From assembly GCA_003576945.1 (NCBI GenBank), contig QEVC01000002.1, positions 5,792 to 69,791 on the forward strand: a DNA stretch of 64,000 nt. The letters run 5' to 3'. Made by a program: the position numbers and the translations under genes. Of this stretch, positions 6,340-51,788 are shown one piece after another (position 1 is the stretch's first letter; each line of letters opens with the position of its first letter). The stretch is from Candidatus Microgenomates bacterium (lineage in GTDB: Bacteria; Patescibacteriota; Microgenomatia; UBA1400; UBA12108). The notes under the pieces are model-generated. The model searched no databases and was not told where the DNA came from. It was given only the letters and a program-made list of their open reading frames with translations.

Positions 6340-6344
6340 ATTTG

Positions 6345-6418
6345 AGATGCGAGAAGGATTCGAACCTCCGTCTTTTCGTTTTACAACGAAATGCCTGAAC
6401 CAACTCGGCTATCGCATC
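6345..6418 (-). tRNA. atypical tRNA-like gene (GUA anticodon = Tyr-like, short variable arm, 8-nt anticodon loop or 6-bp stem)
   Basis: Reverse complement gives a perfect 7-bp acceptor stem (GATGCGA/TCGCATC) and T-arm GGAGG-TTCGAAT-CCTTC. The anticodon arm is an 18-nt perfect hairpin TTTCGTTGTAAAACGAAA, one nt longer than canonical. No encoded CCA. Confidence 0.6.
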
Positions 6419-9820: not shown

Positions 9821-10666
9821 TTAAAACACCTCCTTAACCAGCTCCACTACCTCATCTATTCCAAGGTGAGTAGGCTCTTTGGGACTCGATTTGTCCGACC
9901 CATTAAGTAGCATCTGACAAGATGGATGCAAAAACCATTGGTCAGGTCTATCGTGCTCTAGTATTTTATCATAAAGTACTGTTAGATCGATATTTTTCTC
10001 TGGCACCGCTTTAATCCGCATGTGGCCATAATCCGGATGTTTCAGTATAACAAGCGAATATCCTTGCTTCTGCGCGATCTTAATCGCCTCACTATTAGCC
10101 GACAACATCGCGATTCCTCGCCCCTTCTCCCAACTAAACTCAACACCCATTTTTATCTCTTCCTCTGCTTTTACTACCTGTTTAAGCCTCTGATAGACCC
10201 CATCTAAGTAAATAAAAACGTAGCGAGCCACCGCCTCATTATCCATAACTTGTAGGGTATGTAAGGATGGAATTACCTCGTGGAGTGTATAAGAGTAGCG
10301 GGTAGCCATGGGTTCATCCCAACCAGAATCCTCAAATCGATCAATCGCAAGCGAAAATTCTACCATCTGGCGAATCGCGGTATCACTTGGTGCTACTAAT
10401 CCTTGTGCTACTAAATGTTCATACACGAGCTTGGCCGCACACGTCTCATAGCCACCAGGTAGGTGGTGGTCAAATCGCCCATATCCCACATCCACATGTA
10501 TTACGTCAGGGTCAGTGTCTACCGGGAGGTTTTTATAAGTTGTGCTAGCAGGGACAAACTCTAGGTGAGCATCGCCATAGTGAGACTGATCAAACCTAAC
10601 TAAGAGCCAGAGTGAGGTAATAGCATCTAGATCTGGGTTTTTGTGGGTGACTAGTGTCTTGGCCAT
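9821..10666 (-). CDS. DHH-family phosphoesterase (nanoRNase-like, short)
   Basis: 'HKNPDLDAITS' and 'FDHH' motifs; 281 aa, apparently lacking a full DHHA1 domain. Confidence 0.55.
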   Translation of the reverse strand: MAKTLVTHKNPDLDAITSLWLLVRFDQSHYGDAHLEFVPASTTYKNLPVDTDPDVIHVDVGYGRFDHHLPGGYETCAAKLVYEHLVAQGLVAPSDTAIRQMVEFSLAIDRFEDSGWDEPMATRYSYTLHEVIPSLHTLQVMDNEAVARYVFIYLDGVYQRLKQVVKAEEEIKMGVEFSWEKGRGIAMLSANSEAIKIAQKQGYSLVILKHPDYGHMRIKAVPEKNIDLTVLYDKILEHDRPDQWFLHPSCQMLLNGSDKSSPKEPTHLGIDEVVELVKEVF

Positions 10667-10694
10667 ACACTCATTCTACAACTCAGCACGTGTC

Positions 10695-10723
10695 TTGACT
10701 ACCGCCAAGCAATGTCCTATAAT
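10695..10723 (+). promoter_or_regulatory. consensus sigma70-type promoter (TTGACT-N17-TATAAT)
   Basis: TTGACT at 10695-10700, 17-nt spacer, TATAAT at 10718-10723. A leader of about 160 nt precedes the ATG at 10886. Confidence 0.45.
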
Positions 10724-10885
10724 ACTATGAATGTTCACGCCTAGTGAGGTATCTGCCAATTATCATGTTCAAGGATATAACGACTTTGAACGTGCTCCAG
10801 ATAAAAAACAATTCTCTGGGGAGGATGTCAGGCATCTGTTCTACTCTTTTTAATAAGATCATTTACTAATAATACAAACCTATCC

Positions 10886-11556
10886 ATGTTAGATATTGCT
10901 AATATGGCTGAAAAAAGTGGTGTAGGATTTTTTGACTTAGAGTATGCAACCAAAATCTCTTATGCAGCTATATACACAATAGCCAACCTCGCACTACCCA
11001 ACCATAGAGTTGACTTTTATCATACTGCAGCCTACGAAGAAATAAGGGCCCAAAAACCCACAAACTACTTTGGGATAGAGGCGAGGAAAGTGTACTTAGA
11101 TATGAACGGAAAACAGACGACCCACTACGGAGCTAATGAATATTCTCAAGCTGCCTCAATATCAAAAACTCTTAGAAATGGAGGAGCCGCCATCCCACTG
11201 CTAGATGCTAATACTTTATATGGCAATAAAAAAAGAAAGGAATATTAAAATTAGCTGATAAAAATTCTAGTCACAAAGGAAAAGCTTCTCCACTTCATGT
11301 AGTAGCACTCACAGGATTAACCGAATCAGGAGATATATCTGTAGTTGATCCTGAGCCAGGATACTCAAATACACCAATACTTGCGTTGCTGGATTCATTA
11401 AATATGCTCCGTATCAAATCTGGTAAATTAACTTATGATCAAGCTCAAGAGTACGCCAAAAAATATCACCCATATCATTCAGTTTACTATAGCCTTCCTA
11501 CTACAACAATAATCGATGCACTTCGCTGGTGCACGATCACAATCAATCCGAGATAG
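10886..11556 (+). pseudogene. papain/C39-like peptidase-like gene interrupted by a -1 frameshift in an A7 run
   Basis: Frame 2 ORF ends at 11248. Frame 1 continues from about 11230 to the TAG at 11554-11556, encoding 'HVVALTGLTESGDISVVDPEPG' (C39_2-like His/Asp region). The break maps to aaaaaaa at 11230-11236. Confidence 0.4.
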
Positions 11557-24465: not shown

Positions 24466-27400
24466 TCAATCTCTCTTCATCATTGCTAATACTAGCGTGG
24501 TTCCAAGCAAAACAAAACCTAAATACTGCAATAATTGCGGCCAGTAAAAAATAATCACAATTCCGTTCCCCTCATTATTCATAATTCCTGATTCATTATT
24601 CACAACAAACCCATTTGCCCACCCATCCACTTTCAGATGTCTTAAACTTGCTACATGATACTTGATACTTGATACATTCAACCCCACCCATCCTTCATCA
24701 TACCCTTGACTCAGCCTGATAAGCCCATCACCTCGCACTCCCAACCCATACAACCAAGTCCCCGTCTTTTTTACATGTGTGATCCTAAGGTCTGATCTTG
24801 TAGGTTGCAAATCATTATCATAACCTACGAGGTCAGACCTTATAGGTACCAGCTTTGCCCTCACGATCTTCTCAATGGGTGCGTATCTAACCTCTACTTT
24901 ATCTACCCTATTCTCCGCATACTGCCCAAAACTGCGCGTCTCGATATTGAGGCTGTAGTGTCCATCCCAATCCCAAGGTAGTAGCGAGAATGTCTGATCA
25001 AACTTGCCCCTGTCCATCAGATATTCGATATCATTCCGTTCACTACCTGTATTGTAAAGAAAGAATTTGAGACTCCTACCAGCTTTATTTTCTCCCATTA
25101 CTCTCATTAGATGTGGTACACGGGTAAACGGCCCGCCCATGACTACGTAGTCACATACTGCACCTCTCCCGTCTGCCATATAGGTCGATCTTTCTTTCTC
25201 AGCGCTACCCCGCTTCAATACGTCACAATTTCCGATACTCCCCTGCCCTTGCCGGCCAAAGTCATAGATAAAGGCTTCTCCCATTATTTCTATACTTAAT
25301 TCATCATTCAAAATACTAAATACCTGTTCTCTCCTATATTCCTCCCATTCCTCTCCCTCACTCACTCTAGCGTAGAAATAGCTCTCCCCCTCTTTAGGCT
25401 TTTCCTCTCCCAAAAATCTCGGACCCTTTTCTCCGTTTATATAATATGCTGGCAACGCTTCATTATTAACAAAATCTACTCGAACGATCTCTCCCACCCC
25501 CCACCCCGGTATCACCAGCTCCCGTGATCCAAGGTCTGATCTTGTAGCGTTTACTCCTACGAGGTCAGACCTTAAAGTTATTCCTTTGTCTCCATACTCT
25601 ATATTTTTTATTTCCTCCCGCATCAGCTGCGCAAACGGATAAACTACTGTCCCCTGCGATTCAAGATCTGATCTTGTAGGTTGCAAGTCTTTCTCAAAAC
25701 CTACGAGGTCAGACCTTCCAGGTTGTTCCACATATGTTCCCATCTCCGCATAAATCACATCCTTTCTCGTTTTCAAAGTATCTCCCTCCACCCACATATA
25801 GCTCTCCGGCACCGTGATCCCAAGGTCTGATCTTGTAGGGTTTACTCCTACGAGGTCAGACCTTACAGGAATTTTCCAAACACTCAAAAAGTTCTCATTA
25901 AACACTCTCTCCCACCCTAGCTCTTGTGCCAGCTCTTTTGTCTCCTCTATTCGCAAAATATCTTTGTCCTGCCCCGGCGCAATCACGCTCTCATCTAGTA
26001 GCACATATCGCACGTCATACTTCTGCAAAACTTTTTGTACTTGCCCACTGCACCCTGCACCCTGCGCTCCAAGGTCTGATCTTGTAGGGTTTACTCCTAC
26101 GAGGTCAGGCCTTACAGGACAAGCATAAATTGCAGTCGCAAACTCGTTATAAAACCCCTCGTTATACGGACTCCACGCATAAAATGCCTTGTCTAGAATT
26201 GGCATATTTATCCCTTGCCATACAAACCCACTCCCCCTGTATCCCCACTCATTCAGCTCCCATCCCCAAAAATCCTGTTGCGGTAGTTGTAGCACTCTCC
26301 CCGATTCCACACTATCCATAAATCGAAACAACTCTTGATATTCACTCGGTAACTCTACCCGCAATTTATCGTAAAGCAACTCGCCACGAAAAACTGGAAA
26401 GCTCCACATAATCACCACTCCCACCAATCCAGCAGTGATTCCAAATCTAACCACCCCCCACTTCATCCATCCTAAAACCATCGTCAGTCCATATCCCATC
26501 ATCACAGCGAGACTCATCGCATAAACTAGTGAAAATTTCGTAAAAGCAAATCGGAATATCGCGTCATAATACGGCACATACTCCCTTAGTGTCCACCCCA
26601 CACTCGATACTATGGGGATTCTCAGTCCCAGGTTACACAAAGCGAACAACCACACTACTCCTATCGCCGCCACCCTCCACTCTCTCTTCCACATCGCCAT
26701 GACCCATCCCAACAAACCAGTTCCCACCACTCCCCATCCTATATAAAAAATCCACGCCTGCCCCCACCACTCTATCCACTGTGGCATCTGCAACCCAAAC
26801 TTTCCATCTCCTACATAATCTTCAAACGCTAGTGAGAATCCCTCCATCGCCACCACACTCCGAATGTCACCATATTCGGCGTTGCGCAGCACCACCTCAC
26901 TATTAGATAGTTGGCTCGATTTCGAGGCATTTATCCCTGCCGCACTCGTCATCGCCGAATAAATGTATGGCAGTCCCCAAAAAGCATTCACGGCAAATAG
27001 CACTACTACCACATTTCGCACTCGCTTCCACCCCACCCTCCAGTGTTTCATCCAATAGCTAACAATCAAAGTAAAAATGGTGAGACCGTACACAATAAAA
27101 ATGGTGGGCACGTGTGCTTGTGGGATCGCCAAAAAGTTAATGATCAGGAGTCGCCACAACTTCTTTCGCTCTGGTGCGTCAAAATAAGTCAGTAGTGCCC
27201 ATACTCCCCACGGCAGTGCCGCAAAGTGCATGACAAATAGCTCTAGCGGCTGATAAAACATCTGCACTGTATAGGGGTTCAGCATATAAAACAGTGCCGT
27301 AACTATTGCCACTCCCTGCCTCACTCTCTCCTGCTTACGCAGGATATACATGCTGAGAACATACATCCCCACGCCACCCATTAGGTGCATGAGTAGCACA

Positions 27401-27678
27401 TAAGCGTAACGAACATAGTTAGTAGGTAGTACGAGCGACAACAGCCACGCATACCCCACATGCACCAGGTTCGCCGCGTGCGCCATGGCATCCGTCATCC
27501 CTAGCCCCCGGTATTCTTGCCACACCGATGATAAATCACGCCACAAATGTGTCGAAAATGCCAGTTCTGGCTGTGTACTATCCCAGCCGATTAGCCACGT
27601 CCCAGTGCGGACATTCGCCCACACTATTCCCACTTCAACGAGAACTAATAAAAATACTCCCCACCACCGCTTGAGCAT
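24466..27678 (-). CDS. large polytopic membrane glycosyltransferase-like protein (GT-C/YfhO/ArnT-like N-terminus, soluble C-terminus) carrying five in-frame palindromic repeat units
   Basis: 1070 aa. About 14 predicted TM helices in the N-terminal ~430 aa. C-terminal part contains five copies of 'RSDLVG(xx)..PTRSDL'. Adjacent GT2 gene. Confidence 0.6.
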   Translation of the reverse strand: MLKRWWGVFLLVLVEVGIVWANVRTGTWLIGWDSTQPELAFSTHLWRDLSSVWQEYRGLGMTDAMAHAANLVHVGYAWLLSLVLPTNYVRYAYVLLMHLMGGVGMYVLSMYILRKQERVRQGVAIVTALFYMLNPYTVQMFYQPLELFVMHFAALPWGVWALLTYFDAPERKKLWRLLIINFLAIPQAHVPTIFIVYGLTIFTLIVSYWMKHWRVGWKRVRNVVVVLFAVNAFWGLPYIYSAMTSAAGINASKSSQLSNSEVVLRNAEYGDIRSVVAMEGFSLAFEDYVGDGKFGLQMPQWIEWWGQAWIFYIGWGVVGTGLLGWVMAMWKREWRVAAIGVVWLFALCNLGLRIPIVSSVGWTLREYVPYYDAIFRFAFTKFSLVYAMSLAVMMGYGLTMVLGWMKWGVVRFGITAGLVGVVIMWSFPVFRGELLYDKLRVELPSEYQELFRFMDSVESGRVLQLPQQDFWGWELNEWGYRGSGFVWQGINMPILDKAFYAWSPYNEGFYNEFATAIYACPVRPDLVGVNPTRSDLGAQGAGCSGQVQKVLQKYDVRYVLLDESVIAPGQDKDILRIEETKELAQELGWERVFNENFLSVWKIPVRSDLVGVNPTRSDLGITVPESYMWVEGDTLKTRKDVIYAEMGTYVEQPGRSDLVGFEKDLQPTRSDLESQGTVVYPFAQLMREEIKNIEYGDKGITLRSDLVGVNATRSDLGSRELVIPGWGVGEIVRVDFVNNEALPAYYINGEKGPRFLGEEKPKEGESYFYARVSEGEEWEEYRREQVFSILNDELSIEIMGEAFIYDFGRQGQGSIGNCDVLKRGSAEKERSTYMADGRGAVCDYVVMGGPFTRVPHLMRVMGENKAGRSLKFFLYNTGSERNDIEYLMDRGKFDQTFSLLPWDWDGHYSLNIETRSFGQYAENRVDKVEVRYAPIEKIVRAKLVPIRSDLVGYDNDLQPTRSDLRITHVKKTGTWLYGLGVRGDGLIRLSQGYDEGWVGLNVSSIKYHVASLRHLKVDGWANGFVVNNESGIMNNEGNGIVIIFYWPQLLQYLGFVLLGTTLVLAMMKRD
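24787..26113. repeat. five palindromic hairpin units (arms aggtctgatcttgtagg / cctacgaggtcagacct; spacers 7 or 19 nt) inside the 24466-27678 ORF
   Basis: Units at 24787-24842, 25531-25573, 25653-25708, 25822-25865, 26071-26113. Arms form a 17-bp stem with G-U pairs as RNA. All unit lengths keep the frame. Confidence 0.85.
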
Positions 27679-29296: not shown

Positions 29297-29576
29297 TTTT
29301 TAGGCTTCCTTTCAAGAGCCTAACCTGCATAGAAATTTTCTACACAAATAAGGCTCCTGAGGTGTAACCTACCCTCTACTCGAATCCATCTTTACCCTTC
29401 CGTTGCCCATCCCATCCTTGCAGATGGTTGCGGCGCCGGAGTTTTTTGTTCTCCCGATTTTCATCGGGGAACCCGTATGCCTTGTTAAAGAACTAGCCCG
29501 CCACATTTTGCCGTGAGGCAATATGGGCTGGGCTGCTCTCATCCCAAACTATTACTCGCAACGAGTAGGTTTGAGT

Positions 29577-29677
29577 CTCGAGCTCCTGCCTCTATTTCTA
29601 GTAGCAGGTAGCTGCCTACTGTTACCAATAGACAAATACCTAATACTTATCTCTTATTCACTATAGGATATCACACT
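29577..29677 (+). repeat. copy A of a ~100-bp direct-repeat module (tcgagctcctgcc...ctagtagcaggtagctgcctactgttaccaatagacaaatacctaatac..cactataggatatcacact)
   Basis: About 95% identical to 30407-30506. Ends at the ATG of the MNT gene and is promoter-like. Confidence 0.8.
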
Positions 29678-30022
29678 ATGTCAAATTATTTATGTTATAC
29701 TTGGGGCATGAAGACCAATCCCTTGAGTAAATACCAAGACAAGATCAGCGAGCTGGCACAAAAGCACCACATCTCTTATCTTGCCCTCTTTGGCTCTCAC
29801 GCCAGAGGCGAAGCTAAGCAAGATAGTGACATAGATCTTCTAGTCGATTTTAAGCGCACTCCCGATCTAATCGAACTTTATGATGCCGAACAAGATTATG
29901 CCCGATTACTCAAAAAAGACCTTGATTTTGTAACAGTCGGCGGGCTTAATAAATATATTAAACCTTATATCCTACCAGACTTAATTACACTCTATGGCAC
30001 AAGACCCACAAGTATTTCTTAA
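29678..30022 (+). CDS. nucleotidyltransferase (MNT/MntA-like antitoxin)
   Basis: 'LALFGSHARGEAKQDSDIDLLVDF' GSx10DxD NTase motif. Confidence 0.8.
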   Translation: MSNYLCYTWGMKTNPLSKYQDKISELAQKHHISYLALFGSHARGEAKQDSDIDLLVDFKRTPDLIELYDAEQDYARLLKKDLDFVTVGGLNKYIKPYILPDLITLYGTRPTSIS

Positions 30023-30332
30023 ACAAATTCGTGATTACTGTGACAAAGTAATTGCTCACACAAAAGACATGTCGCTTGCCGATTTCAAGAGAAAAGAAAT
30101 TGTACAACTTGGTGTCATCAAACTCCTCGAAATGATCGGCGAAGCATGTAACAAACTAGAAAATAATTTTCGTGCCACTCATCCAGAAATCCCTTGGCGA
30201 CCCATTATTGGGATGCGCAATCGTACCGTCCACGAATATTGGGACATCAATCTCCCCATCGTGTGGAAAACTGCCATCATCAGAGTGCCAGAGCTACGAG
30301 ATTTGATTGCGCAACTCATTGACCCAGAGTGA
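29994..30332 (+). CDS. HEPN-domain toxin (HepT/DUF86)
   Basis: 'GMRNRTVHEY' Rx4-6H HEPN motif. Overlaps the MNT gene by 29 nt. Confidence 0.8.
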   Translation: MAQDPQVFLKQIRDYCDKVIAHTKDMSLADFKRKEIVQLGVIKLLEMIGEACNKLENNFRATHPEIPWRPIIGMRNRTVHEYWDINLPIVWKTAIIRVPELRDLIAQLIDPE

Positions 30333-30406
30333 TATCCTACATTTATTTATTTGTTAAAGAACTGCTCAATTTTTCGGGTTTTACACGCAGTGTGCATACC
30401 CAAAAT

Positions 30407-30506
30407 CTCGAGCTCCTGCTTCTACCTCTAGTAGCAGGTAGCTGCCTACTGTTACCAATAGACAAATACCTAATACCCATCTCTTATTCACTATAGGATA
30501 TCACAC
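30407..30506 (+). repeat. copy B of the ~100-bp module
   Basis: Followed by a short terminator-bounded transcript unit (30507-30636) instead of the MNT-HEPN pair. Confidence 0.8.
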
Positions 30507-30597
30507 TGTGTCAAGCCGTAGGTCCTGAGCGGAGTCGAAGGGATTATAGAGTTATCTGACTCTCCCCTCTTTTGTATTAAACCAACCTCACTAAAGC

Positions 30598-30636
30598 CCC
30601 CTGCAACAATCGAAAGATTCTTTGCAGGGTTTTTTA
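30598..30636 (+). terminator. intrinsic terminator (ccctgcaa...ttgcaggg + T6)
   Basis: 8-bp inverted repeat with a 13-nt loop followed by tttttt. Would end a ~125-nt transcript starting at the copy B promoter. Confidence 0.5.
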
Positions 30637-30955
30637 AGCTATGCTCGATTTATGAGCAAATCATTGCATACGACTATCTTGATAGACGACAGCAACTTCT
30701 TTTTCAAGCTCAAGGGTCTCAAAATCAAAAATCTCCTCAACTTCGACTTTGGCAAATTTCCCGAGTTTCTCGCAGGTGACAAACCAGTCTTCCAAGTTAT
30801 GCTTTAACCCAAAACACCCAGCACTCCACTCTCTTAACCAAAAGTGACATCCTACAATTTATTTAGTTTTTAAAGAACACCTGCTAGTAGCAGGTACACG
30901 TCTTCAAGGTCGGACCTTGAAGGCACATATCCACCACTGTGATATACTCAAATTT

Positions 30956-31207
30956 ATGAAAACTAAACCTAGCGCAACCACCAGCGGATTTCACGCTTTA
31001 GTCTGGCAAGAGGACGATCTTTTTGTTGCCAAAACTATTGAAATCGAGCTAGCTAGCCAAGGAAAAACCAAGAAAGAAGCTCTCAAAAACCTCGAAGAGG
31101 CCATCGAGCTCTACTTCCAGGACGAACCCAAGACAATCTTCAACTCAACCGCTCTACATAACCTCACATTCGAACAGATTAATCCTCGCTATCCCAACTA
31201 TGCCTAA
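30956..31207 (+). CDS. hicB: HicB-family antitoxin
   Basis: 'FHALVWQEDDLFVAKTIEIELASQGKTKKEALKNLEEAIELYFQD' UPF0150/HicB fold. Start trimmed from 30917. Confidence 0.7.
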   Translation: MKTKPSATTSGFHALVWQEDDLFVAKTIEIELASQGKTKKEALKNLEEAIELYFQDEPKTIFNSTALHNLTFEQINPRYPNYA

Positions 31208-31421
31208 GCGCTATACGGCCAAACAAGTTCTCAAAGCATTGCATCGACTCGGATTTTCAGAAGTTACCAAGAAAGGTAGTCATCTTAAAGTCAGGGGTAT
31301 TCGCGACGGCAAGCTGCAAACAGCCATCATCCCCATGCACCGGGAGGTCGCTATTGGCACGCTTTCCTCGATTCTTCGCCAAGCCAATGTGACCAAGCAA
31401 GAACTAGAAGACAATATTTAG
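31200..31421 (+). CDS. hicA: HicA-family mRNA interferase toxin
   Basis: 'KQVLKALHRLGFSEVTKKGSHLKV...IPMHREVAIGTLSSILRQANV'. Overlaps hicB by 8 nt. Confidence 0.75.
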   Translation: MPKRYTAKQVLKALHRLGFSEVTKKGSHLKVRGIRDGKLQTAIIPMHREVAIGTLSSILRQANVTKQELEDNI

Positions 31422-33066: not shown

Positions 33067-33126
33067 ATCTATATATTACTACCATTTTGGAGTTTGTCAA
33101 ACTCCAAATTAATATCATTTTGGAGT

Positions 33127-34545: not shown

Positions 34546-36759
34546 TCAACCGCACACCGCAAAGCCGCACCCATAGCATTTGCGACACCCCTCCTCTATC
34601 GCCAGCTTGCCTCCACAATTGGGGCACTCCGACCCGATCTGGCTGTCTGATTTCTCTGATTTCCTGGTAATCTGAGTTTTCTGGTTGTCTGAATTCTCTG
34701 ACTTTCCCACATTTAGGACTTGCCCCTCTCTACTCCCATCTCGGTATACCGTTATTCCTTTACAGTGTAGTTCAGAGGCTTGATAGAAAACCTTAATCAC
34801 ATCATCCACCGTTGCGGTACTAGGTAAGTTAATGGTTTTTGACACCGCATTATCCGTGTATTTCTGAAAAGCTGCGAGCATGGCCACATGGTCCTCAGCA
34901 CTTAAATCCATCGCAGTGACAAAAACATCTCTAATCTCTTTGGGAATACTACTTATATGTTTAATACTGCCGTGTCGCGCGATCTCATCCATGAGTTCAG
35001 TCGAATATAGACCATTTACATGTTTGATCGCTTTAACCAGATCAGTGTTTACTTCGGGTAGGGTGTATTGACCCATGCTTTTTCTAAAGTAAGCGAGCGC
35101 AAAATGTGGCTCTATTCCCCCACTCGCATTCGTCATCATGCTAATAGTCCCAGTCGGTGCGATCGTCGTCACTGTCGCATTGCGAAAATGTTTATAGCCT
35201 CGCTTCTGCCAAAGAGAACCTTTGAAATTGGGGAAACTCCCCTTTTCCTTACCCAAGGCCGAAGATGTTTCCCAGCCAATTTTTTGCACAAATTTCATGA
35301 GTTTCTCAGCTAAGCTTAGTGCTTCTTTTGAGTTGTATGGAATATGCAATTTAACCAACATGTCAGCCCAGCCCATGACCCCTAAGCCTATCTTTCTATT
35401 TCCCCGTACAACTTCTGCCACTTTTTTAAGCGGGTACTCACAGACAGAGACCACATCATCTAACATTCGAACTGCAACGCGCACCGTCTCCTCTAACTTA
35501 CCCCAATCAATTCCCATTCCGGATTCACTGCTATACGGATTCACGGATTTACTATCATCTTTTACATGCACCGCCAAATTAATGCTTCCCAAATTACACG
35601 CTTCGTAAGACAAAAGTGGTTGCTCTCCACATAGGTTAACCGTCTCTAGTATTCCCACGTGTGGTGTGGGGTTATATTTATTAATCTCATCAACAAAAAT
35701 CAAACCTGGATCTCCATTTTTCCAAGCCATTCTGGCTGCTTCTTCCAGTATTCCTCGAGCCGAAACTCGTGCCGTTATCGCCCCATTACGTGGATTAATC
35801 AACTCCCACTCCTCATTATTTTTTGCTGCCTCCATAAATTTGTGGGTCACCGCGAGCGAGTAGTTAATATGGGGCAAGTTTGAGCCCGACTCTTTACAGT
35901 GAATAAAATCAATCACATCGGGGTGTGACACCGGCAGCGTTACCATATTTCCACTTCGTCTCTTGCCTGCCTGCAAATAGATATCTGAGGCATCGTTCAC
36001 GAGCTGCATGAGAGCTACTGGCCCACAAGCCGCACCCGAGGTCGTACTCACCCGATCATCCTTAGGTCGAATATGTCCAAAGGTAAACCCAACTCCTCCT
36101 CCATATTTTTTGAGTATCGAAGATTCTTTGAGAGATTCAAAGATCCCCTCGATATCGTCTGGCATCGGCATCACAAAACAGTTAGCCAGCTGATTATTGG
36201 GAGTCCCCGAGTTCGCGAGCGTCCTCCCACCAGGCATAAACCTCAGTTCTCGCATAATATGTTCAAACTTTTCTTGCCAAAGCTTTTTATCCTTCTTTTC
36301 GGCACTCGCCAAAAACTTGGCAGTTCGAGCAAACATTTCACCTACCGACTCCACTACTTCCCCGCTCTCATCTTTCCTAATATATTTTTCTCTAGCGACC
36401 GTTAATGCGTTTAGCGATAGTCCAACCTCATCATGAACTCCGAGTGCATGTTTTGCTGCTTCAACCTGTCTCTTCTTCTCTCTGTTTAAGATGTAGGCTT
36501 TCGCTGTTTTGTAATGCGATTTCTCAAGGAGTACTCGCTCCACCATATCCCCAATCTCCGCGCTCGTTACCCGCCTGATCCTCCCATACTGTTTTTTTAG
36601 CCGCTCCACCGCCTCATGCGCTAGTTCAACTGCTAGCTTATGATCTGTCCCACCAACATCTTGTGCCGCGAGGAAGATCGAGTCTGCTATCTTACCCACA
36701 TCTAATATTTGCTCACTCTCGTTCCGCTTTAAAACCGTAACCTTATTTGTTTTTTGCAT
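34546..36759 (-). CDS. nrdJ: adenosylcobalamin-dependent (class II) ribonucleotide reductase with ATP-cone and C-terminal zinc ribbon
   Basis: ATP-cone N-terminus, 'ANCFVM', 'NLCGEQPL', C-terminal 'CPNCGG..CRKCYGCG'. The linker 'SENSDNQKTQITRKSEKSDSQ' is encoded by a TCAGA-periodic repeat (34637-34706). An ACGGATTC repeat lies at 35521-35556. Confidence 0.85.
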   Translation of the reverse strand: MQKTNKVTVLKRNESEQILDVGKIADSIFLAAQDVGGTDHKLAVELAHEAVERLKKQYGRIRRVTSAEIGDMVERVLLEKSHYKTAKAYILNREKKRQVEAAKHALGVHDEVGLSLNALTVAREKYIRKDESGEVVESVGEMFARTAKFLASAEKKDKKLWQEKFEHIMRELRFMPGGRTLANSGTPNNQLANCFVMPMPDDIEGIFESLKESSILKKYGGGVGFTFGHIRPKDDRVSTTSGAACGPVALMQLVNDASDIYLQAGKRRSGNMVTLPVSHPDVIDFIHCKESGSNLPHINYSLAVTHKFMEAAKNNEEWELINPRNGAITARVSARGILEEAARMAWKNGDPGLIFVDEINKYNPTPHVGILETVNLCGEQPLLSYEACNLGSINLAVHVKDDSKSVNPYSSESGMGIDWGKLEETVRVAVRMLDDVVSVCEYPLKKVAEVVRGNRKIGLGVMGWADMLVKLHIPYNSKEALSLAEKLMKFVQKIGWETSSALGKEKGSFPNFKGSLWQKRGYKHFRNATVTTIAPTGTISMMTNASGGIEPHFALAYFRKSMGQYTLPEVNTDLVKAIKHVNGLYSTELMDEIARHGSIKHISSIPKEIRDVFVTAMDLSAEDHVAMLAAFQKYTDNAVSKTINLPSTATVDDVIKVFYQASELHCKGITVYRDGSREGQVLNVGKSENSDNQKTQITRKSEKSDSQIGSECPNCGGKLAIEEGCRKCYGCGFAVCG
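34637..34706. repeat. TCAGA/TCTGA-periodic element half-copy inside nrdJ
   Basis: Contains ctgagttttctggttgtctg (34672-34691), a 19/20 match to the four-helix-bundle flanking IR. Confidence 0.7.
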
Positions 36760-45283: not shown

Positions 45284-46327
45284 TTAGTTCTCAAACATCT
45301 CTTCTACCGGGAAAAACAGTGTCTCTGCAATACTGGGTGTATCTGCAAACAAAGCAACTAACCGATCCACTCCCACTGCGATTCCACCAGCTTCTGGCAT
45401 CCCGAGCTTTAATGCCTCAATAAAATCATGATCCATCGGATACTCTGTCTTACCCAGCTTCTTCCTTTTCACTAGATCAGCCTTACACCTAGCCTCTTGC
45501 TCCTGCCAATCGGTAAGCTCCGAAAAACAATTACCTAACTCATATCCCGCTAGATAAACCTCCCACCGCTCCGCAAACCGGGGATCCTTGGCTTTCTTGG
45601 CTAGCGCAGCTTGAGAAACGGGAAAGTCATACATTATAGTCGGACCAGCCACTCCGAGTTTTGGTTCTATTTCGTTTGCGATAATCTGATTCCACATCTC
45701 CTCCCAGGTACTCTCATCATCTACCTGGTAACCCTTCTTTTTACTTGCTTCTTTTAACTTGTCCCGATCAAGCATCGTCTCAACATCTATCCCCGCATAC
45801 CTTTCAAATGCCTCGGCGACACTTATCCGCTCCCACGGCGCTTGCAGCGAATACTCTTTACCCTGGTATTCCAAAACGGATTCACAGCCAGAAGGCTTTA
45901 CGGCTTTACGAATATGTTCCATTAGTTCTTCAAAATCTTGCGCAACTGTCATATAGTCACCTGGAGTGTGATACCACTCGAGTATCGTAAACTCTGGGTT
46001 ATGTCGACTAGACCTCCCTTCCCCATTACGGAAGGATTTGGTAATGGTAAAAATAGATCCAGAACCTGCCGATAAGAGTTTTTTTAATGCGAATTCGGGT
46101 GAAGATGGCAAAAAACTAACCCATTTACGACCATGGTCATCGACTAACTGAGTTTTAAATACCTCTAGAAATGGCTCGGTCGAGGGTGTGGGTAGTAAGA
46201 GTGGCACCTCCGCCTCATGAAATCCACGACCCTTAAAAAAGGCTCGGATGGCATCAATCACCCGCTCTCGCACCCAGTACTGCTGCCACAAATCTGGGTG
46301 CTGTTTCAGTTTTTGAAATGTTTTCAT
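45284..46327 (-). CDS. epmA: EF-P--(R)-beta-lysine ligase (LysRS class II paralogue, GenX/PoxA)
   Basis: Class II core 'FHEAEVPLL...FRNGEGRSSRHNPEFTILEWY...GGIAVGVDRLV', no anticodon-binding domain, 347 aa. efp is nearby. Confidence 0.8.
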   Translation of the reverse strand: MKTFQKLKQHPDLWQQYWVRERVIDAIRAFFKGRGFHEAEVPLLLPTPSTEPFLEVFKTQLVDDHGRKWVSFLPSSPEFALKKLLSAGSGSIFTITKSFRNGEGRSSRHNPEFTILEWYHTPGDYMTVAQDFEELMEHIRKAVKPSGCESVLEYQGKEYSLQAPWERISVAEAFERYAGIDVETMLDRDKLKEASKKKGYQVDDESTWEEMWNQIIANEIEPKLGVAGPTIMYDFPVSQAALAKKAKDPRFAERWEVYLAGYELGNCFSELTDWQEQEARCKADLVKRKKLGKTEYPMDHDFIEALKLGMPEAGGIAVGVDRLVALFADTPSIAETLFFPVEEMFEN

Positions 46328-47661: not shown

Positions 47662-49632
47662 ATGCAAATCCTCATCCAGACCATCCTCCACCTCTCTGTC
47701 ATCTTTATTCCCCTCACCTTTACCACCCTCAACTCCGAGCTCTTTGAGTTCCCCAAGTTCATCCTCCTCCTCTCTGCTACCCTCACCATCCTCACCGCCG
47801 CCATAGTAGATTACTTACATAATCGTCATTCTCAGAGATATACGGATTTACGGGTTAACGGATTTACGAGTCCCATTAGTCTCGCCGTACTTGCAATCCT
47901 CGCCACCCAGCTCTTATCCACTATCTTTAGCATCAGTCCCTATACCAGTTTTTGGGGTTACTATAGTCGCTTCCACCAAGGTCTCTTAACTACCATTTGT
48001 TACACCATTCTCTACTTTGCCGCTTGCCTCTACCTGGATAAAGAAAGTGTGCAAAAACTTATAAAAGTATCTGTAGGAACAGCTTTTTTTATTAGCCTAT
48101 ATGCCATCTTACAGCGCCTGGGAATCGACAAATCGCTCTGGATCCAGGACGTGGTCAACCGCCCTTTTAGCTCGCTCGGCCAACCCAACTGGCTCGCTGC
48201 CTACCTCCTCCCCAATCTATTTTTATCTCTCTATCTTATTAGAGATTTTCCAAAATCACTTACACTGCGTACCGCCTACTGCGTCATACTCATTGGCCTC
48301 CTCCTCACCAAATCTCGCTCCGGTTTTATTGCCCTCGCACTTAGCTATCCACTTTATTGGCTCCTCCTCGCTCGCCAGTTCTCCTTCACCAAAATAAAAC
48401 AACAACTATTTCTTTCTACTTTCTACTTTCTACTTGTCACTCTTTTTGTCGGCACTCCCTACACTCCCAAGTTAATAGATCTCCTAAAATCTCCTAAGCA
48501 AGAAATTACTAGCTCCCAATCAACCGGCACCCAACTCGAAAATGGAGGGACTGAAAGTGGGGATATTCGTCGCATAGTCTGGTCCGGCGCTCTCAAGTTA
48601 ATTCAAAAACACCCCATGATCGGGACAGGTCCCGAAACCTTTGCTTATACCTATTATTGGCAGAGACCAGTCGCTCACAACAATACTTCAGAGTGGGACT
48701 ATCTTTACAACAAAGCCCACAACGAATATCTAAACATTGCGGCAACCACTGGCGTGCTCGGTCTCCTTGCCTACCTCTACTTTCACTATGCTGTCTTTCT
48801 TAAAAGTACAGAATTAGTTGTTAAATCCAAAAAAATCAATCAAGAAGAAGATAATAATTTGCGCAGTCTCTACCCTGTCTTAGGTGCCACCATTATTGGT
48901 TTCACCATCACCAACTTTTTTGGCTTCTCCGTGATCCCAGTCTATCTCTTGACGACCCTTATTGCCGCGCTGCCCCTATCTGTAAATCAACAACTAGATA
49001 AAGGCAAAAACGACAAGAATCTAGTCCTCCTAATCTTTCTCCCTCTCATCTACCCCGCCCACCTATTCTTCACCGATATTAGCTTTGCTAAAGGGAAAGC
49101 CTATTTAGATGCCAATCAACCTGGGAATGCTCTCCCACTCCTCCAGAAGGCCGTAAATAGTAGGCCAGGATTAGACTTGTATCATAGTACCGTCGGCGAA
49201 GCCTACGCCCAACTAGGCCAAACAGAACTCGCTGTCAAAGAAGCCGAGCTAACCAAGAAGCTCAATCCCTACCATCTCAACTTCTACAAGAGCCGAGCAA
49301 AAATCTATCTCACCCTATCCACCAACGACTCCCAATATTACCAGCCTGCCGCGAGAGAACTCGAAGAGGCCCGCACCCTCGCCCCCACCGACCCCAAACT
49401 CTACTACAACCTAGGCCTAATCTATACTCGCCTCGGCAATAATGATCAAGCCATAACCCAGTTTAAGCAAGCCATCTCCCTCAAGCCCAACTACGAGAGT
49501 CCCTACTATGCCCTCACTCTCCTCTACGAGCAAACTGATCAAAAGAAACTTATACCTGATCTACTCTCAAGCGCCAAAGAAAACCTGGCTACATATAGTG
49601 GCGCTTTAAACGAAAAAATTTTACTCTACTAA
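47662..49632 (+). CDS. O-antigen ligase/polymerase-family membrane protein with C-terminal TPR repeats
   Basis: Polytopic; 'KSRSGFIALALSYPLYW' Wzy_C-like. C-terminal TPR-like 'YYNLGLIYTRLGNNDQAITQFKQAISLKPN'. ACGGATTT tandem repeat in frame at 47839-47870. Confidence 0.65.
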   Translation: MQILIQTILHLSVIFIPLTFTTLNSELFEFPKFILLLSATLTILTAAIVDYLHNRHSQRYTDLRVNGFTSPISLAVLAILATQLLSTIFSISPYTSFWGYYSRFHQGLLTTICYTILYFAACLYLDKESVQKLIKVSVGTAFFISLYAILQRLGIDKSLWIQDVVNRPFSSLGQPNWLAAYLLPNLFLSLYLIRDFPKSLTLRTAYCVILIGLLLTKSRSGFIALALSYPLYWLLLARQFSFTKIKQQLFLSTFYFLLVTLFVGTPYTPKLIDLLKSPKQEITSSQSTGTQLENGGTESGDIRRIVWSGALKLIQKHPMIGTGPETFAYTYYWQRPVAHNNTSEWDYLYNKAHNEYLNIAATTGVLGLLAYLYFHYAVFLKSTELVVKSKKINQEEDNNLRSLYPVLGATIIGFTITNFFGFSVIPVYLLTTLIAALPLSVNQQLDKGKNDKNLVLLIFLPLIYPAHLFFTDISFAKGKAYLDANQPGNALPLLQKAVNSRPGLDLYHSTVGEAYAQLGQTELAVKEAELTKKLNPYHLNFYKSRAKIYLTLSTNDSQYYQPAARELEEARTLAPTDPKLYYNLGLIYTRLGNNDQAITQFKQAISLKPNYESPYYALTLLYEQTDQKKLIPDLLSSAKENLATYSGALNEKILLY

Positions 49633-49685: not shown

Positions 49686-50243
49686 ATGATCTACATGTCA
49701 ACTATAATCTCAGTCCCTCACCCCACCCTTCGCACCAAGTGTGAGCCAATTCAAAGCATTACTCTCGAAGTTCAAGAAGAAATCCAAGATCTAATCGACG
49801 CTCTAAAGGGTGCCCATAACCCCGAGGGCGTCGGCCTCAGTTTCCCCCAGATCGGGATCTCAAGGCGCGGCTTTGCCACCTATCTAGAAAAAAAAATTCG
49901 TATTTATCTCAACCCCGAAATCATAGACCAGAGTGAAGAGACCACCCTCGGTGGCACTCCCGAGCGCCCCACTCTCGAAGGCTGTCTCTCCATCCCTCAC
50001 CTCTATGGACCTGTCCCAAGGGCCAAAAAAATTAAAATTAAAGCAATTGACGAGCACGGTGTCGAAGTCTACAAAACTCTTACTAGTTTTGCGGCCCGCG
50101 TCTTTATGCACGAACAAGACCATCTAGACGGTATCCTCTTTACCGACTACACGCTCAAACACAATCTCCCTCTCTATTTCCTCGACAACGAGCAAGATAA
50201 GTTTATCCAGGTCGAAGATCCCATTAAAATTATCAAGTGGTAA
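49686..50243 (+). CDS. def: peptide deformylase
   Basis: 'EGCLSIP' and 'HEQDHLDG' (HExxH) motifs. Motif 1 is a variant, 'GVGLSFPQIG'. Confidence 0.8.
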   Translation: MIYMSTIISVPHPTLRTKCEPIQSITLEVQEEIQDLIDALKGAHNPEGVGLSFPQIGISRRGFATYLEKKIRIYLNPEIIDQSEETTLGGTPERPTLEGCLSIPHLYGPVPRAKKIKIKAIDEHGVEVYKTLTSFAARVFMHEQDHLDGILFTDYTLKHNLPLYFLDNEQDKFIQVEDPIKIIKW

Positions 50244-50816: not shown

Positions 50817-51788
50817 ATGTCGCCTCTTATCTTTTTTGGCTCCGATCGTTTTAGTGCCGTCGTACTAAGTGAGCTAATCAGTCAAAATCACGCTCCAACA
50901 CTAGTAGTCACCGACCAACCAAAACCTGCCCGCAATACTTCGCATAGCGATGCAGGCGGGCCCAAAGGAAAGCAAGGTATTCTTAGTCCCAACGAAGTCG
51001 AAACTCTCGCCAAAACGCAAGACATAAAAATATTATATTATCAAGACAACAACGAAGAATTGATCAAATATATACAACATTCAAAATACAACATACAAAA
51101 TACCAATCTAACTGGCCTCTCTGCCTCTTTCCCCCACCTCTTCCCCGCCGACTTTATCAGTTTGTTTAGCGGTCATCTCTATAATCTCCACCCCTCCCTC
51201 CTCCCACAGTACCGCAATGTTGCACCAGGTCCTTACGCCATCATCATGGGCGATAAAGAGACCGGGATCACCCTCCAGCATATCGACGAGCGTATCGATA
51301 CTGGCAGTATCATCGCCCAGCAGTCAGCTCCCATTCATCCCTCCGATACCTCTACCACCCTCCTCAACCGACTTTTTACCAAGGGTGCTGAAATCTTTAT
51401 TCAGCATTTATCGGACGGATTTACGGATTTACGGATTAACAGATTTACGAATCAACTAATCTTTACCCGCAAGCTCACCCGCCAGTCTGGCTACATCGAG
51501 TGGGACATCGTCCAAAAGCTACTTCAAGGTCGGACCTTGAAGGTGGGTGACACAGTCAACCCCCTAATCCATCTCCGTCTCACCCATCATCCAGAGAGAA
51601 CAGAGAACATCCTCCCCGACCTAATCCGTGGCCTCAACCCATATGAGCGAGTCTGGACAGTAGCAAAAACCAAAAAAGGAGAACTCCAGCTCACACTATC
51701 CCTCTCACCCAACGGCGAAATTATGGTCCTAATCCCTGGCAAGCCAAAACCAATTCTCTATACTGATTTTGTAAAGTATTATCTCTAA
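50817..51788 (+). CDS. fmt: methionyl-tRNA formyltransferase
   Basis: 'NLHPSLLPQYRNVAPGPYAIIMGDKETGITLQHIDERIDTGSII'. The inter-domain linker carries the ACGGATTT tandem repeat (51412-51452) and the 21-bp palindrome (51522-51542). Confidence 0.8.
   Translation: MSPLIFFGSDRFSAVVLSELISQNHAPTLVVTDQPKPARNTSHSDAGGPKGKQGILSPNEVETLAKTQDIKILYYQDNNEELIKYIQHSKYNIQNTNLTGLSASFPHLFPADFISLFSGHLYNLHPSLLPQYRNVAPGPYAIIMGDKETGITLQHIDERIDTGSIIAQQSAPIHPSDTSTTLLNRLFTKGAEIFIQHLSDGFTDLRINRFTNQLIFTRKLTRQSGYIEWDIVQKLLQGRTLKVGDTVNPLIHLRLTHHPERTENILPDLIRGLNPYERVWTVAKTKKGELQLTLSLSPNGEIMVLIPGKPKPILYTDFVKYYL

Follow-up and report, generated by a model that had tools for sequence, protein, structure and literature searches.

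A palindrome shared by an intergenic site and fmt in a Candidatus Microgenomates chromosome: a probable REP/REPIN-like hairpin repeat of Patescibacteria

A perfect 21-nt palindrome that is present twice in 64 kb of a Candidatus Microgenomates chromosome is probably the singlet form of a REP/REPIN-like family of hairpin repeats of the Patescibacteria. The family unit is a self-complementary segment of ~23 nt, CCTTCAAGGTC-N-GACCTTGAAGG, able to form a hairpin in single-stranded nucleic acid. The REP/REPIN-like reading is based on the occurrence of dispersed singlets, of inverted doublets and of a Y1/HUH transposase gene that is bracketed by the same repeats. It is not a new principle; what is unusual is the high intragenic fraction, the covarying hairpins in essential genes and the copy that lies within the transposase gene itself.

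The stretch that was analysed (64,000 nt; the window) is an ordinary piece of chromosome of a member of the CPR/Patescibacteria, and the exact match to its fmt product bears the name 'DPW11_04135 ... Candidatus Microgenomates'. Its genes include cysS, topA, nrdA, tmk, mreB, def, fmt, one for a PBP2-type transpeptidase and five for tRNAs, the latter being the only Rfam families in the window. The tRNA at 6344-6418 (minus strand) is given a four-base anticodon, 'gtaa', and no amino-acid assignment by ARAGORN; its Rfam score (58 bits) is that of a normal tRNA. GC skew is strongly negative (-0.07 to -0.36) over positions 1-64000, also where genes are on the plus strand, suggesting a replication-strand bias and not a coding bias.

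The palindrome, CTTCAAGGTCGGACCTTGAAG, is a perfect 10-1-10 palindrome at both of its sites, 30902-30922 (site A) and 51522-51542 (site B). The stretch common to the two copies is 22 nt, since a trailing G follows both; the flanks beyond it are unrelated:

30902..30923, no strand assigned: singlet palindrome A (CTTCAAGGTC-G-GACCTTGAAG plus G), intergenic.
51522..51543, no strand assigned: singlet palindrome B, identical to A, within fmt and read LQGRTLK (amino acids 236-242).

Matches to the 21-mer at up to 3 mismatches averaged 0.01 in 100 dinucleotide shuffles of the window, and the 10-nt half-site is found nowhere in the 64 kb outside the two palindromes. As single-stranded DNA, A and B fold into hairpins of 9-11 bp with a 3-nt loop (-8.2 and -8.5 kcal/mol; z -4.3 and -4.9). 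An assembly artefact is excluded, because six independent public assemblies (all of their contigs representing one strain) show the same site A and the intragenic copy is in frame. Neither copy has the form of an intrinsic terminator, that is, of a G+C-rich hairpin with a T-run directly after it: the bases that follow are GCACATATCC at A and GTGGGTGACA at B. A terminator scan called no intrinsic terminator at site A, and a promoter scan found no promoter at its palindrome.

The public search used the 21-mer with any central base (CTTCAAGGTCNGACCTTGAAG) as its query. Exact matches were found at 8 loci in 185,579 species-representative genomes (two in Beckwithbacteria, others in Doudnabacteria and in low-G+C MAGs with doubtful labels) and at 58 loci in JGI metagenomes, with no match in viral contigs; by our own estimate, which counts the 20 specified bases, ~1 match would be expected by chance. 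Altogether, 70 exact instances in 66 public CPR-type contigs, which span 30-52% G+C and phylum-level groups, fall into 38 context clusters with unrelated flanks. The sequence-only reading had taken the identity of the two window copies to be no coincidence, and the 0.01 matches in shuffles together with the 70 public instances bear this out. It had also named what would have told against it, namely a motif at chance frequency with fmt orthologues holding the same residues without the palindrome; the motif is instead far above chance in public data, and the nearest fmt orthologues carry a similar hairpin.

Public copies are usually extended by C...G to 23 nt, often as 11-1-11 palindromes. Several contigs hold 3-5 copies (L029, L031, L065 and L057), perfect 21-mer doublets are present in L013 and L022, and certain extragenic copies lie 4-9 nt past the 3' ends of tRNAs (L014 and L023). 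At up to 5 mismatches to the 23-mer there are 117 copies in 504 kb, compared with 0 in shuffles. The variants are palindromic too, CCTGCAAGGACTGTCCTTGCAGG and CCATCAAGGTCGGACCTTGATGA being examples. Compensated Watson-Crick double changes number 45 against 6.3 expected (maximum of 16 in 1000 simulations) in a set of 119 distinct contexts at up to 6 mismatches, in which kin copies are counted separately, so that the number of independent events is overstated. Another palindrome, GCACCCCGGGGTGC, recurs ~40 nt or less from the 21-mer in three low-G+C metagenome contigs (L038, L054 and L057); these genomes appear to hold several hairpin-repeat families side by side.

Half of the context clusters (19 of 38) place the palindrome within open frames of at least 150 codons. 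These intragenic copies are read as LQGxTLK or as (T/P/S)SRSDLE(G/E); the remaining frame has a TGA, whichever strand is read, which leaves two of three frames free of stops on either strand. A conserved site of this kind is found at the C-terminus of dihydrofolate reductase (DHFR), beside thyA (...FTKVITSRSDLEGDYQLE), where the copies add no length relative to homologues.

The window tally is completed by 10 degenerate arms, which are confined to one gene. That gene adjoins one for a GT2 glycosyltransferase, and the arms are arranged in it as five inverted doublets:

24466..27678, minus strand: host gene of the five doublets, encoding a polytopic membrane protein of 1070 aa for which Pfam gives no match.
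26066..26118, minus strand: inverted doublet 1, read VRPDLVGVNPTRSDLG; an insertion relative to homologues.
25817..25869, minus strand: inverted doublet 2, read VRSDLVGVNPTRSDLG; an insertion relative to most homologues.
25658..25722, minus strand: inverted doublet 3, of the long-spacer type, read GRSDLVGFEKDLQPTRSDLES.
25526..25578, minus strand: inverted doublet 4, read LRSDLVGVNATRSDLG; one long hairpin in single-stranded DNA.
24782..24846, minus strand: inverted doublet 5, of the long-spacer type, read IRSDLVGYDNDLQPTRSDLR.

Each doublet consists of inverted arms AAGGTCTGACCTCGTAGG and CCTACAAGATCAGACCTT with a spacer of 7-21 nt. The arms, near-palindromes of 23 nt, have the AGGTCnGACCT core of the 21-mer, and the whole folds as one long hairpin. 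Two inverted units with a short spacer make a REPIN, and the five doublets are built in this way, whereas both window 21-mers are singlets. The suggestion that the 21-mer belongs to the same palindromic family as the repeats of the membrane-protein gene holds up: they have a common core, AAGGTCnGACCTT, and a common 23-nt layout, CCTnnnAGGTCnGACCTnnnAGG.

The doublets, whose five units read xRSDLVG...(N/Q)PTRSDLx, are compact (55-75 nt), hold no gene fragment and are discrete in-frame insertions, coinciding with gaps in most of nine aligned homologues. The closest homologue (P0122, from L076) has an element at the position of doublet 5, and P0128 (from L074) contains such a unit elsewhere in the alignment. 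Doublet 3 of the window, at amino acid 654, and the P0128 doublet at amino acid 737 are ~93% identical over ~75 nt, although they occupy non-homologous positions in host proteins of only 41% identity. Judged by sequence comparison, a near-identical doublet at non-homologous positions is a signature of a mobile element.

The membrane-protein family also offers a second orthologous palindrome site, 'LQGxxLKVEV', at which the hairpins covary and the copies again bring no gain of length relative to homologues:

L064: CCTTCAAGGTCCGACCTTGAAGG, perfect.
L074: CCTTCAAGGACAGTCCTTGAAGG, perfect, with GTC/GAC swapped to GAC/GTC.
L076: CCTTCAAGGAGACTCCTTGAAGG, perfect 10-3-10.
L075: TCTGCAAGGTGAAACCTTGAAGG, one mismatch.
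Window: codes ILNDELSIEI, decayed.

The link to a transposase comes from related loci. In L031, four palindrome copies surround and enter an ORF (10239-10946, minus strand) that contains the motifs YHLYNRG, MPNHFHLLV and YIHLNPV and matches Pfam Y1_Tnp (E 2e-10; 41.3 bits, cut-off 23). Its sole and best NCBIfam match is the 'REP-associated tyrosine transposase' NF047646, at 47.4 bits, under the equivalog cut-off of 80 bits for RAYTs. A perfect 21-mer lies 30 nt upstream of the transposase ATG and another copy 64 nt further out; an internal copy (10772-10794) is read LQRQGRTLKE, and a copy in the last codons is read TSRSNLEE. Palindromes upstream of the transposase gene (~30 nt), within it (amino acids ~51-58) and in its 3' part are seen in L031, L019, L035, L061 and L065. 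Fragments of transposase genes end at a palindrome in L065, L046, L022 and L028/L058, and in 7 of the 38 context clusters a transposase homologue lies within 300 nt.

The transposase family has at least 7,962 matches in Patescibacteria, named 'transposase' in Parcubacteria, Zambryskibacteria and Minisyncoccota. Nearly all Patescibacteria Y1_Tnp members (P0241-P0360) have the palindrome's translation, xQG(R/S)TLxE, at residues ~50-58, and in each of the five genes that were read as DNA this segment differs from the 23-nt palindrome at no more than 3 positions. A cognate hairpin of its own is thus part of the transposase gene. The window itself yielded no Y1 transposase homologue by tblastn, and a Pfam scan found no transposase or integrase among 30 of its larger ORFs.

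Site B lies in a housekeeping gene downstream of def (49686-50243):

50817..51788, plus strand: host gene fmt (methionyl-tRNA formyltransferase), with Formyl_trans_N at amino acids 60-197.

Palindrome B is read in frame as L236-Q-G-R-T-L-K242. The sequence-only reading had placed these residues in the inter-domain linker, which proves to be mistaken: in the AlphaFold model (mean pLDDT 87.5) the linker corresponds to residues ~201-220, and amino acids 236-242 run from the end of helix 229-236 into the next loop, in the C-terminal domain. A profile of 32 fmt orthologues aligns with solved Fmt structures through the linker, to the conserved 'IEWD'. Nor are the seven residues an insertion, as had been surmised: all 32 aligned orthologues have the same length there, with no gap at the palindrome. 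The nearest orthologues have LQGYTLKA, LQGQALKV or LRGYALKV at the site, and more distant ones have INNKPITK, of equal length. The DNA of the nearest orthologues forms a similar, covarying hairpin at the same codons:

L067: CCTACAAGGTTACACCTTGAAGG, near-palindrome.
L068: CCTACAGGGTTACACCCTGAAGG, CAA/TTG changed to CAG/CTG, a compensated pair.
L069: CCTTCAGGGCCAGGCCTTGAAGG, GGT/ACC changed to GGC/GCC, likewise compensated.
L072: CCTTCAGGGCCAGGCCCTGAAGG, a different palindrome, perfect 11-1-11.
L070: CCTACGGGGTTACGCCTTGAAGG, with G.U pairing on the sense strand.

The L070 hairpin folds only as sense RNA (-12.0 vs -6.6 kcal/mol), and no fmt hairpin is found in L071 and L073, which are of the INNKPITK/INGQSITM type. 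Synonymous (third-position) conservation at the hairpin codons is 0.62-0.68, compared with a gene mean of 0.51 (rank 19-56 of 237 windows), and since it is only modestly raised, the sequence would seem to be evolving while the pairing is kept. Site B is probably a long-resident intragenic copy, kept as a hairpin.

Other repeats also occur in fmt. Repeats with an octamer period (ACGGATTT-like) are present at 2020-2059, 35513-35552, 45870-45909, 47828-47875 and 51409-51456, inside five ORFs (for an alpha/beta hydrolase, the ribonucleotide reductase large subunit, a class II aminoacyl-tRNA synthetase, a Wzy_C/TPR protein and fmt). Those of fmt encode the variable, low-confidence inter-domain linker 66 nt upstream of palindrome B, and similar 7-8-nt repeats adjoin the palindrome in L039, L008 and L044. 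Near the start of fmt, a 36-nt hairpin-forming segment, CCTGCCCGC...GCAGGCGGG (50925-50963), encodes the insert ARNTSHSDAGGP (amino acids 37-49), which is disordered in the AlphaFold model, is present in orthologues P0002, P0003, P0005, P0006 and P0012 and is absent from others. It looks like a second, unrelated in-frame palindromic insert.

Site A is situated between two toxin-antitoxin pairs, an MNT/HepT pair (29678-30332) and a HicB-like/HicA pair, its last base lying 34 nt ahead of the hicB-like ATG:

30956..31421, plus strand: HicB-like protein (DUF7387, 83 aa) and HicA toxin pair, directly 3' of palindrome A.

Another perfect palindrome, ACCTGCTAGTAGCAGGT (30881-30897), ends 4 nt before palindrome A and includes one of three copies of a 13-mer, CTAGTAGCAGGTA (29598-29610, 30428-30440 and 30884-30896), of which none would be expected; two of the copies are 72-80 nt upstream of the start of a toxin-antitoxin cassette. 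Two copies of the 13-mer sit in a 109-nt repeat (29576-29684 and 30406-30514; 94% identical), within which public contigs frequently end, at 30447. No intact gene follows the second copy of the 109-nt repeat, and the apparently gene-less stretch from there to palindrome A holds a terminator-like hairpin, CCCTGCAA...TTGCAGGG, followed by TTTTTT (30597-30640, plus strand); a decayed cassette may account for 30508-30860. A further long palindrome without mismatches, the third of its kind in the window, is TTTGGAGTTTG-n-CAAACTCCAAA (33086-33108; 11-1-11); it lies between two minus-strand genes, for an AAA_14/DUF4143 ATPase and a sortase, where it shares sequence with an overlapping direct repeat of 21 nt.

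Much of this is familiar from REP/REPIN sequences and their RAYTs, of which the E. coli REP-TnpA(REP) system and the REPINs of Pseudomonas fluorescens are examples (PMC3116915, PMC3733652, PMC5581495); the properties of RAYTs are summarised in PMC5581495. Common to both are hairpin palindromes of 20-40 nt, here dispersed over many CPR genomes with unrelated flanks, inverted doublets that fold into a single long hairpin, and a Y1/HUH transposase gene bracketed by the same repeats. REP-flanked RAYT genes are termed 'REPtrons' (PMC3733652), and the corresponding arrangement is found here in related loci only. Intragenic in-frame copies are likewise known for some REP families, mostly as dimers that encode 20-30 amino acids (Di Nocera et al., PMC3733652). 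There are also differences. The classical REP stem has an unpaired GTAG (or CGTC) tetranucleotide at one end (PMC3733652), whereas the Patescibacteria 21-mer is a perfect palindrome without such a tag: GAAG/CTTC occupies the tag position and is paired. CTAC/GTAG does occur at that position in the doublet arms and in several fmt orthologues, as part of the stem. The proportion of intragenic contexts (about half), the copy inside the transposase gene and the score of the transposase under the NCBIfam cut-off are further points of departure. The family is accordingly a variant and not a plain member of the REP/RAYT class, because it lacks the unpaired tag, its transposase falls below the cut-off and some of its copies add no length. 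Patescibacteria are absent from the phyla listed for REPs (PMC3733652), and we found no description of REP/RAYT elements in CPR bacteria in the searchable literature, which is not proof of novelty.

The Rickettsia palindromic elements (RPEs) resemble the Patescibacteria repeats in being in-frame palindromic repeats in genes, housekeeping genes included, of bacteria with small genomes, translated as extra peptide segments. They differ in size (100-150 bp for the classical RPE-1), show no sequence similarity to the Patescibacteria palindrome and have no dedicated transposase, whereas a Y1 transposase gene is linked to the Patescibacteria palindrome in relatives. The short RPE-4 and RPE-6 are treated as CGTC REPs in PMC3733652.

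How such a family would work can be sketched by analogy with IS200/IS605 elements and E. coli TnpA(REP): the transposase would recognise the hairpin in single-stranded DNA, cut it and rejoin it. The doublets would be the mobile form and the singlets their stable remnants; the mobility of the repeats is itself suggested by comparison of sequences. Survival within genes would be owed to the two stop-free frames, giving LQGxTLK or SRSDLE, so that the palindrome is presumably tolerated even in essential genes such as fmt as harmless amino acids. The copy at site A would be a passenger in the hicBA upstream region and may affect transcription. Simple insertion is not a sufficient account, since the copies in fmt, in DHFR and at the LQGxxLKVEV site add no length. 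Those copies could be ancient insertions that have decayed elsewhere, the result of short-patch conversion, or the product of selection towards a hairpin. A stronger version, a Patescibacteria REP-like system in which the hairpins are actively maintained in essential genes and not merely tolerated, seems to us doubtful. If there is maintenance, the orthologous hairpins of fmt and the membrane proteins, kept across species by compensatory change, their unchanged length and the transposase gene's own copy would point to conversion ('hairpin repair') or to a cellular function.

The closest rival of the REP/REPIN-like reading is an element of the IS200 type: the palindromes would be the ends or footprints of ordinary IS200/IS605-type insertion sequences, in which the mobile unit would be the transposase gene together with a subterminal hairpin on each side, the isolated palindromes being solo ends that remain after deletion and not a REP population. 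In the IS200/IS605 family, imperfect palindromes beside the gene are recognised as single-stranded DNA hairpins. The fold family, Y1_Tnp, is the same (the IS608 LE and RE hairpins, for example, are bound by TnpA), the transposase gene in relatives is bracketed by hairpins as in IS200, the protein scores under the RAYT equivalog cut-off, and the truncated gene fragments already listed end at a palindrome. This origin is nonetheless improbable. There is no transposase remnant near the palindrome in 31 of the 38 contexts, and the hairpins far outnumber transposase genes and occur alone. The two transposase paralogues of L035 are not recent IS copies, because they are only 51% identical, and the Patescibacteria data give no sign of a multicopy transposase gene. 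The doublets are compact, at 55-75 nt without a gene fragment, and the left (upstream), internal and right (downstream) hairpins have the same sequence, whereas the two ends of IS200/IS605 elements are distinct. We also regard it as unlikely that selection acts chiefly on an RNA hairpin, one that protects transcript 3' ends or takes part in processing or attenuation, and that the transposase link is secondary. Such a role would suit the copies just past tRNA 3' ends, the L070 fmt hairpin, which folds only as sense RNA through G.U-type pairs, and the preservation of pairing by compensatory changes, and action at the RNA level has been proposed for REPs elsewhere (PMC3733652). It does not explain why one particular sequence is conserved across phylum-level groups at 30-52% G+C, or why a transposase gene is bracketed by it, and neither window copy has a T-run or was called as a terminator. 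An RNA role is, in any case, compatible with the REP reading and not exclusive of it.

The remaining alternatives fare worse. That site A serves as operator to some dimeric DNA-binding regulator, as in hicBA autoregulation, and that the fmt copy is an accident is very unlikely: a perfect 10-1-10 palindrome does lie 34-54 nt upstream of the hicB-like ATG and adjoins a TGnTATACT-like -10 element (read from the sequence), but the promoter scan had no match at site A, no DNA-binding domain was detected in the 83-aa HicB-like protein, which matches DUF7387 only, half of the contexts are intragenic and hicBA is in none of the others. CPR bacteria are thought to depend on DNA uptake, and Neisseria uptake sequences often occur in inverted pairs, which would favour an uptake-type signal or some other short genome-wide word in inverted pairs. 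We give this hardly any credence; the 10-nt half-site is never alone in the 64 kb, a count on which the uptake word was rejected, 8-nt sub-words are near shuffle expectation and the density is far under one per kb. Convergence can be argued from the codons, those for L-Q-G and T-L-K being mutual reverse complements, and from the near-palindromes already present in fmt orthologues: template switching, by which a change in one arm can be transferred to its partner with no need for selection, would have perfected each site independently. Such a coincidence is extremely improbable, for it accounts neither for an identical copy in non-coding DNA at site A nor for the 38 unrelated contexts, the second reading frame (SRSDLE) or the transposase link, although template switching may contribute to the complementarity of the arms.

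Most of what is known of REP/RAYT systems comes from Proteobacteria, with a few other phyla besides, and their very name calls them extragenic. The REP/REPIN-like reading would add a related hairpin family spread over the ultra-small, gene-dense genomes of Patescibacteria, with half of its copies within ORFs (including fmt, DHFR and the transposase) and some persisting at the same codons with compensatory changes. Certain puzzling short inserts in CPR proteins would thereby be accounted for in concrete terms, and annotators would gain a marker, which could also reveal contig breaks caused by repeats. The family would also make a tractable case for asking if hairpins of this kind are functional, are maintained by conversion or ride along as selfish passengers. 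If active maintenance were true, intragenic hairpins of DNA or RNA would either have a cellular role or be kept by a transposase-linked process of short-patch conversion ('hairpin repair'), in genomes that are otherwise strongly reduced.
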